This document shows positions 18,663 to 24,245 of a stretch of DNA of 64,000 bases, one piece after another. The DNA lies in the NCBI RefSeq assembly GCF_036971445.1, contig NC_091471.1, positions 342,488,001-342,552,000 of the forward strand, in the 5' to 3' direction. The stretch is from Narcine bancroftii (taxonomy: Eukaryota). Within the stretch, counting starts at the first letter, position 1. Every line of letters begins with the position of its first letter. A program made the position numbers and the translations under genes. Under the pieces are notes generated by a model, which did no database searches, was not told where the DNA came from, and saw only the letters and a list, made by a program, of their open reading frames with translations.

Positions 18663-19339
18663 TCAACCTGATCTGGTGTAATGTGTGTTGTGTTCATGGT
18701 CATCACCCTGTCCTTTTCTCCTCTCCCTCTAAAATATCCTCCTGCTCCAGCTTCTCTTGATCTGCTCAGACTTGTAACATTCTGGGGACTTTGGAACAGG
18801 GGCCTCTCCGGATCGCCTTCAAAGATTAAGCAAAGATATTTTGCATTTGTAGGCAACATCCAAAGGACCTAAATGGAGATGCAGTAACATTATTTGCAAT
18901 AAGAATGAATACTGTAATGAAATTAAAGGAGACACCATGATCACAATGGAATATTGTTAGCTTTAGTCTTGGTCTTGAGATGATTCAGGCCTCTGTGGCC
19001 CCTCTGCCCATTGGGACGAGCAGGATCTATTCCACCTGATGTATTCTGCACTGGTATCTCCATCCTATCTCATGCTGAGTTAGCCTGGATGGAAGAGATG
19101 GCACACTTGAGTCACCTTTCCATTATCCTGTTGGACGTTAGACCCGTCTGTCAAGGTACAATGGTGCTGAGGGTGAAGTAGGTGGGAGTTGTGGATGGAG
19201 TAACAGTAGTATGCATGCCTTGATAAGTGTGTCAATGTAAGAAAACAATCTTTGTGGTGGTCTGCTGCTCACTTTGACAGACCTGAAATTTCTTAGAACA
19301 TTCTTCCATGCTGTGAAATGATGACCCCAACTATCTCCT

Positions 19340-19557
19340 TGTGGTGAATGTCTGCCAAGCTGCCTGTCTCCCCTCTGGCAAGCCTTGCTGTACTAACATT
19401 GGCTGTGCAATATCTCTACTGTTAAGGACACTCCCCTTGGGTATAACTGCGTATGCACCTATTGTCTTTCATTATTGTACCATCAGTTTCTGCTAATAAA
19501 AGCCATGATTATTGTTTGACCACATCGTCTTTTTCTACTTCATCAACTGGCACTTCA
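19340..19557 (+). repeat. 5' LTR
   Basis: TGTGGTGAA...CACTTCA; TATAA at 19443; AATAAA at 19495. Confidence 0.97.
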
Positions 19558-19572
19558 ATTTTATTAACAGAA

Positions 19573-20400
19573 ATGGATGCAGTCCTCAAGCCAGAGTGGC
19601 TGATAATCGACCCGTCTGTCCCGAGGGCCAGAGAAATTTTCAACCACTGGATTGCTTGTTTCAATTACTACATGGCACGAAACAACGTGGTTGATGAGGT
19701 GATACAGTGGGGCCACCTGAACTCTCTGCTGGGTGAGGTCCCTTTTGCCGTTACGCAAGGAGCTACCACTCTGGCTATAGCCCGGGAATGTCTGTCTGCT
19801 TACTATGTAGCACCACGGAATGTGGTGCTTGCTTGACGCCAGTTGTTGACTAGATGCCAGAAACCCAGGGAAAGTGATGCTGCCTATGCACTGGCCCTCG
19901 ACTCACTGGCAAACGAACATGATGTCAGGGCAGTCAATGTGCAACAACACCGCGACGCCTTGAATCTGGATTCTTTTGTCAACGGGATTGATTCCAGTTA
20001 CACCCGACAGAGGCTGCTGGAGACGGAGCCCCTAACCTACGACCGGGCAATCACTCTAGCCAAAACACTGAGAAGTGCCATGCGGTCCAGTGAAATGCTA
20101 GAAACCAAAATGGAAACATCCAGGAGTGCTGGAACCCCGAAGGAAAGAAAAGGGCAAACTCCTGAAAAATGCTACTTCTGTGATGAGAGCTGGCACCCCA
20201 GACAGAAGTGCCCAGCTCAATTTGCTACCTGCAGCTATTGTGGGAAACTCGGCCACATCGCTAAAGCGTGTAAGGCGAAAAATAATCCCACTGATAAGAA
20301 GAAGAAGAGAATCACCAAGAAAATGCATTCTGGAGCTGCAGGAATGGAAGACAACTGTGAAAAGGGGAATCTTCAGATGAACAGGCTGAATAGACTTTGA
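19573..20400 (+). pseudogene. Gypsy gag with premature stop at 19834-19836
   Basis: Starts MDAVLKPEWL; two CCHC knuckles, CYFCDESWHPRQKC and CSYCGKLGHIAKAC. Confidence 0.9.
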
Positions 20401-20479: not shown

Positions 20480-23251
20480 TATGAAGGGGAAGGTGAATGG
20501 TGAGACTCTTGATTGCCTAATAGACTTGTGGAGTACTGACTGCTACATCCACAAGAGAGTTGCCAGAGCCTTAAATTTGCGGAGATATCCAGCGAACTGA
20601 AAGATATCGATGGCTTGTAGTGAACTTACAAAAACTGTATGGGACAACTGTAAAGTTACTTTAAATTTGCAGGGACATTGCCTGGCTGATGTGTGGCTCT
20701 TTATAATGCCAGAGCTCTGCGCCCCTGTGTTACTGGGGTTAGATATTCAATCTCAGATGAACAGTGTAGTGTTAAATTTCGATGGGCCACTACCCACACT
20801 TAGCACCCCCCGCACTAGTTACTGTGGTCTGTCCGCATTAAAGATCAAAGCTCCTTCCCTTTTCAGTGATTTATCCCGAGTGTCAGCCGATTGCCACGAA
20901 GAGCCGTTCTTACATCAAAGAGGATCGTGAGTTTATCAAAGCAGAGACCCAGAGACTGCTTAAAGAGGGAGCAATTGAAGCTAGTAAGAGTCCGTGGCGG
21001 GCCCAAGTGGTAGTCGTGAAAAATCACACTAAGAGACGACTGGCTATTGACTACAGCCAGACAATCAACTGTTACACGATCCTGGATGCCTACCCCCTGC
21101 CACGCATCAATGAAATGATTAATCAGATAGCGCAATACAAAGTGTACTCCACTATCGACCTCAAAGCAGCTTATCACCAAATCCCCATTAAGAAAAGGTA
21201 ATGGCCCTATACGGCTTTTGAGGCTGATGGGGGGGGTTTATACCAGTTTAAAAGGGTACCTTTTGGGATCACTAATGGTGTGTCCATGTTTCAGAGGGAA
21301 ATGGATAAGATTGTTAGGATGTATGAGTTACAGGGTACATTTCCCTATCTGGATAATGTCACTATCTGTGGGAAAACACAGGCTGAGCACGACAACAACT
21401 GAAAGAAATTTTTAGCAACAGCTAAAGAACTCAACCTTACATTTAACGAGGGCAAATGTGTGTTCAATGCGACAGAGCTACCCATTCTGGGCTACATTGT
21501 CTGCAAGGGTGAAATCCGCCCCGACCCAGAACGAATGGCCCCCCTCAAGAAGTTACAACCCCCAGACTCAGCAAAAGCCCTTAAAAGGTGTATGGGATTC
21601 GTTTCCTACTATTGCAAATGGGTTCTGGACTACGCCACGAAGGCACGCCCTCTGTTTGACACTAAATCTTTTCCTCTCTCTCTCTCTCTCTCCATTGGCC
21701 TTGAAGGCTTTCGAGAGAATTAAAGCTGATTTTGCCAAAGCTGCACTCCTGTCCATTGACGAGGATGACCCATTCCAAGTGGAAAATTATGCCTCAGATT
21801 GTGCCTTGGCACAAAAGGGCAGACCTGTGGCATTCTTCTCCCACACGTTACCTGGACCTGAACTTAAACATCATGCCTTTGAAAAAGAAGCCCAGGCTAT
21901 TATTGAAGCTGTTCGCTACTAGAGACACTTTCTAGCTGGCAGAAAATTTACTCTTGTCACTGATCAGAAATCTGTAGCCTACATGTTCAGTACTAAACAC
22001 AAAAGTAAAATCAAGAACAATAAGATGGCACGCTGGCAAATAGAACTCTCAACTTATAATTATGAGATCCAGTACAGACCGGACAGATTAAATGATCCCT
22101 CTGAAGCATTGTCACGATCTGCTGCTGGTGCTCAGCTGGGGGGGCTAAAAGAGATCCAGGAGTCACGAGGTTCTTCCATTACATAAGGGCTAAGAACCTT
22201 CCTTACTCTCTGGAAGAAGTCAGGAAACTGACTAAAAGCTGTCCTGTTTGTGCAGAATGCAAACCGTAATACTTCAAATCTCCGGAGGCCACTCTCATCA
22301 AGGCAACCTGACCTTTTGAGAGGATTAGCTTAGATTTTAAAGGACCGTTACCTTCCAACAACAAAAATGTATATTTCCTTACAGTAATTGACTAATATTC
22401 CAGGTTTCCCTTTACGATACCCTGCCCTGATGTCTCATCAACATCTGCCATTGAGTCACTTGACAGAAATTTCAGCATTTTTGGTTTTCCCAATTACATT
22501 CATATCGATAGGGGCTCAGCATTCATGACCGCTGAACTGCGGCGAGCCCTGCTACGGAAGGGGATTGCCACCAGCTGTACCATGAGCCTCAACCTGCAGG
22601 GCAATGGGTAGGTCGAAATGGCTAATGCTACAGTCTGGAAGACTGTTAATCTTGCTTTAAAAACACATGGTTACCCTGTTACCCGGTGGCTGGAGATGCT
22701 GCCTGAAGCGCTACATTCTATTCGGTCATTATTGTGTACTGCAACAAATCAAACACCTCATGAATGTATGTTTGCCTTTCCTAGGAAATCAGGAACTATG
22801 ATGGACTGGCCAGCCTGTTTATCTGAGCCTGGAACCGTGCTGCTGAAGAGTCATGCTCGGGCGCATAAAACAGACCCCTTAGTCCAACCAGTTCAGCTAC
22901 TGCATACCAACCCCAACTACGCTCATGTTAAATTCCCAGACGTGAGTACTGACACTGTACCCCTAATAGATCTGGCCTCGCCTGGTTCGCCCCTTCCTTA
23001 CACCCCTACTCAGAGTGAGCCTGAGAGATTGGGCTCACTCCCCCCAGCCTGTGACCCATAGTAAGCTTTCAGATGGCCATTCTGAGGCTCCACTGCCTCA
23101 CGCTGGCGATTCTGGAGCCGGTCCAGAAGTCAGTCCTTCCCACACTACACACCCAGGACCTGTACCAGTTCTCAAGTTTGCAAAGGAGCCACCTGTTTTG
23201 AGAAGAAGTACCAGAATTTGTAAACAACCTGATAGGCTGACATATTCATAA
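20480..23251 (+). pseudogene. Gypsy pol (protease, RT, RNase H, integrase) with multiple stops and frameshifts
   Basis: CLIDLWST (PR); SPWRAQVVVV, IDYSQTIN, LDAYPLPRI, STIDLKAAYHQI, PFGITN, YLDNV (RT); RPVAFFS, EKEAQAI, TDQKSV (RH); CPVC, LDFKGPL, DRGSAF (IN); terminal LRRSTR. Confidence 0.92.
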
Positions 23252-23406
23252 ACCATCTCATTATATTTTGATTGCTTGCTAGATACTGGCGTATTTTGGC
23301 TGTTAGAGTATTCTCAATGCCAAACATGGTATCCATGTATCGCTTGCTTCAGTCTTTCCTAGGAGCTGTCCTTTTGATTTTAACCCTTCTTCTGCCGGGG
23401 GGAGAC

Positions 23407-23623
23407 TGTGGTGAATGTCTGCCAAGCTGCCTGTCTCCACTCTGGCGAGCCTTGCTGTACTAACATTGGCTGTGCATTATCTCTATGTTAAGGACACCCC
23501 CCTTGGGTATAACTGTGTATGCACCTATTGTCTTTCATTATTGTACCATGAGTTTCTGCTAATAAAAGCCATGATTATTGTTTGACCACATCGTCTTTGT
23601 CTACTTCATCAACTGGCACTTCA
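23407..23623 (+). repeat. 3' LTR
   Basis: Direct repeat of 19340-19557, preceded by the polypurine tract GGGGGGAGA. Confidence 0.97.
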
Positions 23624-24205
23624 CTCCTACCAGGGTAGTTGACCACTGGCACTCAGGAGCCTCCAATTTTCTCCCCTCCCCATCGTGCAGAGGCTCACTC
23701 ATCTGTCTATTCTTAATTTACTTGTAATTCTTTGTCTCCTTCCGTAAATTGAAGGGCTCCATTTCCTGCATTGTGTGCGCTGCTGTTGGGTGTGTACTTT
23801 CAAGTGGCAATACCCTTCAGTAATTACTGAGCAGGCTGTGTTGACTAATACATTCAAATGAGCAAAATTTTATTAAAAATCTAGTAAATGTGTCTGGCCA
23901 CATCAAACCAAGCTGTGAAGGATCGCTGACAGGACACATTTTCTCTGTTGCTCTTCTCACAGATGTCGCCTGATCTGTTTAGTATTTCCAGCTATTTTAA
24001 ATTTTTTAGTTTCAATAGAGCCTGTCTCATCAGGGCAAGCTCGACTTTAGCACTCATTGCTGGGTGTGAACCACATGCAATTTCAAACGCTTTTTTTTTG
24101 TGGAGCATCCAATAAGAGCAAAATATCTAAAGGAAGTCTCATTACTGTGCACCCAAAACAGAATGTTTTTTATTTTATTTCAAGTTTCTAGCCTTTGCCA
24201 TGTTT

Positions 24206-24207
<2 letters not shown>

Positions 24208-24245
<38 letters not shown>
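24208..24245. repeat. (TA)n microsatellite
   Basis: Uninterrupted AT dinucleotide run. Confidence 0.95.

Follow-up and report, generated by a model that had tools for sequence, protein, structure and literature searches.

The 64-kb stretch of ray DNA analysed here, referred to as the window, carries a decayed Ty3/gypsy LTR retrotransposon, the parts of which are listed in Table 1. The element was recognized from matches to a zinc knuckle, reverse transcriptase (RT) and RNase H; both gag and pol are broken. Membership of Ty3/gypsy follows from the LTRs, the target duplication, the polypurine tract and the order protease–RT–RNase H–integrase, the last of these being read from a better preserved relative, L061. 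Among RTs of solved structure the best match is that of Ty3 (E = 2e-49). Since a 5-bp target duplication flanks the element, host DNA follows directly after the 3' LTR. No tRNA gene was found within the 64-kb window. A CT microsatellite lies within pol (21664–21703), and a TA repeat is located about 600 nt beyond the element (24205–24245). The family to which the element belongs is abundant in the host genome, where first-look searches returned 2,048 DNA and 9,934 gag candidates, figures that are not copy numbers. The labelled proteins closest to this family are from rays and sharks.

Table 1. Features of the retrotransposon in the window. Positions are those of the window.
Feature	Position	Strand	Basis or remark
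5-bp target-site duplication, left copy	19335..19339	no strand	Identical 5 bases at 23624-23628
5' LTR, TG...CA, 218 bp	19340..19557	+	Direct repeat of 23407-23623, 96-97% identity
TATA-like box, predicted	19442..19449	+	Loose-pattern motif match
Initiator-like motif	19469..19474	+	Predicted transcription start near 19471, from motif spacing
Segment that might pair with 19573-19581 in a second helix over the AUG, in competition with the first (weak)	19476..19483	+	By-eye reading; family-level tests marginal
LTR arm, predicted self-primer; poly(A) signal and one further A at its 3' end	19487..19501	+	
AATAAA in 5' LTR, predicted paired	19495..19500	+	
Leader arm at primer-binding-site position, one base past the CA of the LTR; no TGG	19559..19573	+	
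gag start codon; first one or two bases only within the duplex	19573..19575	+	M1 conservation, pairing probabilities
gag with two CCHC knuckles; interrupted at 19834-19836 by an in-frame stop	19573..20400	+	
Decayed pol region, several stops and frameshifts; approximate bounds	20601..23251	+	Pfam matches for RT and RNase H; position for protease and integrase; domain order from relative L061
Polypurine tract	23397..23405	+	Sequence
3' LTR; arm copy at 23553-23567 and AATAAA at 23561-23566, both without a downstream partner	23407..23623	+	
5-bp target-site duplication, right copy; host DNA next	23624..23628	no strand	Sequence

The LTR arm and the leader arm are complementary at 14 of 15 positions, with one mismatch in the window copy. 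At up to one mismatch, the 15-mer matches three times in the window, where 0.04 matches are expected; apart from the match to itself there is one on the reverse strand of each LTR. The initial annotation had proposed that this one hairpin would hide both the 5' poly(A) signal and the gag start codon. Its anatomical basis is sound: AATAAA does lie in the paired LTR arm, the ATG follows 15 nt (19558–19572) past the end of the LTR, and the partner arm stands behind the 5' LTR only, because the target duplication places host DNA after the 3' LTR and the helix is absent there. The placing of the gag ATG within the partner arm holds in part, with the A paired and the U paired through G–U but the G lying outside the duplex. 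The proposed folding comparison of 19470–19600 with the 3' LTR context was likewise divided. The helix is present in the 5' fold and missing from the 3' fold, but the folding energy is unremarkable (z = −1.14), so that the evidence for the duplex has to come from its position and from covariation.

Within 30 copies of the window family, 14 of the 16 pair positions are kept in 29–30 copies and the remaining two in 28 and 25. The position that is mismatched in the window copy is paired in 28 of the 30, and in four copies a common variant of the leader leaves the hexamer's first A unpaired. The duplex is AU-rich, with an energy of −11.4 kcal/mol in the window and of −13.9 to −22.5 kcal/mol in seven other loci.

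Relatives were gathered by gag and pol searches of the host genome and of genome bins. The scan covered 109 loci; scoring left out L083 and L087, both of which have no gag start, and the remaining 107 reduced to 88 unique loci. These fall into 19 families, of which the host supplied 14 and the bins five. A duplex scoring at least 10 was present in 79 of the 88 unique loci and in 18 of the 19 families, compared with 1/88 and 2/83 stretches in the two controls. Its register is fixed, 73 of the 79 duplexes beginning one base after the CA of the LTR. The duplexes are 13–17 bp long and the LTR arm ends in A[AT]TAAA in 73 of the 79, while the remainder of the arm varies. Even within one family (L044, L075 and L091, with gag identity of 77–78%) the arms differ, each being fully complementary to its partner. 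At L048 no duplex was found, and the DNA upstream is unlike an LTR end. A control gypsy family from the same host genome has TGG at the primer position and no self-complement there. The five bin families, which have the same pattern, come from contigs that had been assigned to genome bins of marine bacteria; these contigs (L082–L089) bear animal-type gypsy elements and most likely represent host contamination. A scan of viral contigs found no relatives, and four metagenome loci (L078–L081) with weak, integrase-only matches were dropped as relatives.

Covariation was assessed in 23 representatives, a biased sample inasmuch as most are the best-pairing copy of their family and the families are related. 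In this set 88% of the cells pair, compared with 37–49% in slid registers. Changes on both sides are seen at 14 of 17 pairs, a result matched by none of 500 shuffles, although the double changes in four columns are partly due to a one-base register shift between families with AATAAA and families with AATAAAA. The 14 core pairs (322 cells) comprise 310 Watson–Crick pairs, three G–U pairs and nine unpaired cells. RNAalifold, unaided, recovers the same helix, and L082, which has the variant ATTAAA, shows a matching change in its leader arm. A rival explanation, that AU-rich sequences are complementary here by chance, could draw on the ordinary local folding score, but the survey with its controls, the covariation and the rarity of the 15-mer are all contrary to it. 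With covariation and a fixed register together, we reject chance complementarity as having a negligible probability.

Two further regularities at the LTR arm's 3' end were noted. The last three A–U pairs are invariant across the 23 rows, and a G and a C, the first and third base past the arm (19502–19504 in the window), are kept in at least 90% of them. Together these could form a cleavage-site signal.

What, then, is the duplex for? A published criterion for predicted self-priming is LTR complementarity of at least 10 nt that begins 0–5 nt after the LTR, as given in PMC6317226. The elements considered here have no TGG and carry an LTR complement of at least 10 nt starting within that interval. 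The spot at which a tRNA would normally dock is here complementary to the element's own end-repeat, so that the element likely primes with its own RNA, and the position of the duplex, its fixed register, its covariation and its nearly pure Watson–Crick pairing all fit a self-primer. On this sequence evidence we consider that the duplex is likely to be a self-primer of the Tf1 type, in a chromodomain-less Ty3/gypsy lineage of animals that has no tRNA-type site; we would put the probability of this reading at about 0.8. Self-priming would also account for the lack of a tRNA-type primer site in such elements.

The precedent is Tf1, the primer of which is its own first 11 bases, released by RNase H cleavage (PMC7175516); about half of Tf1 cDNA ends bear a single-stranded copy of the primer site (PMC11042837). 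By analogy, transcription of the window element would begin near 19471, and the R segment ending in AAUAAAA would fold onto the leader just beyond the LTR. A cut in the RNA would then follow behind the last A, the probable agent being the RNase H of the element, as it is in Tf1; the 3' end so produced would prime minus-strand DNA. The short stretch between the cut and the poly(A) site would be used in strand transfer. Finally, the primer would presumably be copied into plus-strand DNA, regenerating the site and keeping the arms matched, which would explain the near-perfect Watson–Crick match.

The predicted start derives from TATA-like and initiator-like motifs, defined by loose patterns, which lie 29–34 nt apart in 14 of the 23 representatives and place the start 28–78 nt upstream of the 3' end of the arm. 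With such a start the primer would be longer than that of Tf1 and only its 3' part would be paired, and the poly(A) signal would lie within R. This leads to a caveat, in that the primer would not, as it does in Tf1, lie at the very 5' terminus, and the copy of R at the 3' end could pair instead. In several families (U3 regions of L043, L054, L073, L076 and L095) the TATA-like box reads AATAAA and lies about 30 nt upstream of the predicted start. Separately, a database gene model, P0002, seems to enter the LTR family at the AG before the arm (19485–19487 in the window) and to read into gag; host transcripts may thus use the start of the arm as a splice acceptor.

Alternatively, the duplex might be purely regulatory, serving to mask the poly(A) signal or forming a stem between U5 and the leader, with priming left to an unrecognized host RNA or to some other site. 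The duplex is AU-rich and the primer itself is a prediction from sequence, and both points leave room for such a view. However, the leader arm sits at the primer position and changes with the LTR of each family, so no single host RNA could match it, and G–U pairs and bulges are nearly absent, unlike the situation in a hairpin of merely structural function. We regard a purely regulatory duplex as very unlikely. The anatomy of the duplex suggests that it is chiefly priming that constrains it.

The lineage that bears this predicted self-primer forms a distinct clade in the RT tree (support 100/99), apart from two other host lineages. Its members have a single gag-pol frame, two CCHC knuckles, an RT motif of the YLDN type and no chromodomain; none was present in the four long polyproteins inspected, and Pfam gave none among the 120 relatives listed, some of which are partial. 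The RT of a host family with a TGGCGACGAG site, possibly Mag-like, is only 25–26% identical to that of the lineage. Labelled relatives come from Trichuris, Ischnura, Actinostola, Apostichopus and cartilaginous fish. Chromoviruses are treated as absent from protostomes and echinoderms in PMC2774666.

CsRN1 elements are described, in PMC2582038, as having a tRNA-Trp site, a CHCC gag motif and a 4-bp target duplication. This clade was rejected, as the window lineage has no TGG, carries CCHC knuckles and makes a 5-bp duplication; the LTR start TGTGGTG alone fits. The marker set of the Cigr-1 clade, a non-chromovirus Ty3/gypsy group from Ciona, is given in the supplement to PMC2774666; some Osvaldo members share it. 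The lineage has the same markers, judged from the translation of L061 by eye and with Pfam: two CCHC knuckles, an ILG-type protease, integrase after RNase H, loss of GPY/F, no chromodomain and no env. The likeness to Cigr-1 is one of markers. No sequence link to a clade name was found through the literature on YLDN, PwRn1, MolGy and Cigr, and a motif search of the supplements to PMC6238403, PMC8556966 and PMC2774666 gave no match in the searchable files.

In the literature consulted, self-priming is demonstrated for Tf1 and is a prediction for the relatives of Tf1 and for a small number of plant lineages. PMC6317226, PMC4600332, PMC10085805 and PMC5006619 tie it to Tf1/sushi, Tcn1 and TAR copia elements and suggest an unexplained priming mode for Skipper. 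The window lineage shares with Tf1, Tf2, Tj1 and the Tf1/sushi chromoviruses the lack of a tRNA-type site, a sequence after the LTR that is complementary to a segment of the LTR, and the order gag-PR-RT-RH-IN. It differs from them in having no chromodomain and in relatives labelled as nematode, insect, cnidarian and echinoderm. The duplex is of 13–17 bp, whereas that of Tf1 has 11, and the arm is predicted to lie 28–78 nt into the RNA and ends in a poly(A) signal. A conserved three-duplex 'pretzel' is described for Tf1/sushi in PMC10085805; in the consensus fold of the lineage (RNAalifold) this was not found, there being a single helix. The plant elements Tcn1 (gypsy) and TAR, Houba and Osr-1 (copia) are predicted self-primers by the same sequence criterion (PMC6317226, in the text available). 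They belong to other lineages and hosts, and that text mentions no overlap with a poly(A) signal for them.

We found no title in the open literature on self-priming in a non-chromovirus animal gypsy element, although subscription papers (Butler 2001 and the Cigr-1 description), Repbase and GyDB may note it. Nor, in the open literature as distinct from those same sources, did we find a title on a primer that contains a poly(A) signal. The signature of self-priming in a chromodomain-less lineage of animals would imply either another origin of the mechanism or a wider ancestral spread. It would also imply an escape from control exerted through host tRNAs and tRNA fragments.

As the partner arm has no counterpart behind the 3' LTR, the self-primer is predicted to mask the 5' AAUAAA as a side effect, and this masking is possibly a second, selected role. 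In the window element the predicted pairing of the hexamer is 0.99–1.0 in the 5' context and 0.06–0.21 in the 3' context. A set of 16 related elements, of which three have no hexamer at the arm, left 13 to be scored; the hexamer pairs at 0.94 or above at the 5' end in 11 of the 13, and at 0.06–0.77 at the 3' end. A duplex that is real, conserved and specific to the 5' end, with an AAUAAA predicted to be paired only there, makes poly(A) masking a reasonable hypothesis. If functional, such a mask would be a simple answer to the question of how identical LTRs come to polyadenylate at the 3' end only.

HIV-1 has the same problem, since AAUAAA is transcribed at both ends and the 5' copy has to be silenced. 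In that virus RNA structure surrounds the AAUAAA, and the region of the gag AUG pairs with U5 (PMC5961354 and PMC3694450). The HIV polyA hairpin, however, lies in R and so at both ends, with 5' specificity derived from U1 at the splice donor, as far as those texts describe it. In the window lineage it is the primer-binding site that would act as the partner; the function, which has been shown for HIV, is only predicted here.

Whether the duplex has also been selected to mask the 5' AAUAAA against premature polyadenylation, through a partner outside the LTR, is harder to judge. The constancy with which the hexamer closes the LTR arm (73 of 79 duplexes) although other arm positions vary, the compensating leader change that accompanies the ATTAAA of L082, and the pairing of the hexamer in the 5' but not the 3' context all speak for selection. 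The partner would emerge 26–63 nt after the arm, at about the time when downstream elements are transcribed, judging from the spacing. Against this, L088 keeps a perfect 17-bp duplex that ends in GGTAAA, with no canonical hexamer in the arm or the loop; L085 and L086 have a second AATAAA in the loop, which the duplex leaves uncovered; and the variant noted above unpairs the first A in four of 30 window-family copies. The link may moreover be one of inherited register, as the R that takes part in strand transfer is delimited both by a fixed cut site and by a fixed poly(A) signal. Other routes of suppression also exist, among them proximity of the poly(A) site to the cap. Retroviral solutions include a signal located in U3, U1 snRNP, weak sites and U3 enhancers (PMC3694450 and PMC5961354). 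Weighing these points, we consider selection for masking to be possible, if somewhat less probable than its absence. The full proposal, in which a widespread animal Ty3/gypsy lineage would use its poly(A) signal as the 3' end of a self-primer, one duplex would both silence polyadenylation at the 5' LTR and start reverse transcription, and the two LTRs would be told apart by a primer-binding site that is the mask, with a flanking helix over the AUG in some families, is more tentative and seems to us doubtful.

The ATG in question is the real gag start, as M1 is invariant in 46 aligned gag relatives. In the window copy the predicted pairing of A, U and G is 0.99, 0.84 and 0.06, respectively. In 26 of the 29 scored copies of the window family two bases of the AUG fall within the main duplex, which reaches the codon in that family alone of the 18. 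Elsewhere the AUG typically lies 4–22 nt beyond the duplex, the exceptions being one locus with no ATG found and one off-register match. The claim that the same hairpin hides the gag start codon thus fails as a conserved design.

The initial annotation had further suggested a switch between translation and priming. Such a switch might act through occlusion of the start codon by the main duplex or by an adjacent helix, in which the part of R lying 5' of the arm would pair with the first codons and for which there are signs in about five of 16 families with marginal support. In the window family the median predicted pairing of A, U and G with the 5' region is 0.99, 0.99 and 0.68. In three families of 14 copies each, the flanking helix is more stable than with shuffled partners (−12.1 against −7.2, −9.5 against −4.4 and −10.9 against −6.0 kcal/mol), but the helix was noticed post hoc and these families were chosen because they showed it. 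It also beats shuffled partners in the L102 family. A permutation of own versus foreign partners gave p = 0.037, with p of 0.36–0.98 in nine control windows, whereas Wilcoxon tests gave p = 0.07, 0.30 and 0.86. Pairing of the AUG with the 5' region is close to zero in four of 16 families, and the main duplex overlaps the AUG in the one family only. Primer cleavage would in any case remove the cap, so that masking of the AUG would not be needed to separate the two fates of the RNA. A start-codon switch therefore appears unlikely.

Other gypsy elements of the host showed some features of their own. One further lineage (L145, L147 and L149) lacks both a TGG behind the LTR and a clear self-complement of the LTR at that position (best score 7–9); by eye, pairing looks possible between the end of its U5 and leader sequence about 20 nt farther downstream. 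A related family (L050, L052, L058–L061, L074 and L077) is very young, with LTR pairs that are 99–100% identical and long open frames, and in some of its copies a tandem repeat rich in alanine and threonine separates gag from protease. At L059 two LTR-derived repeat pairs occur in an odd arrangement that suggests a nested or tandem insertion.
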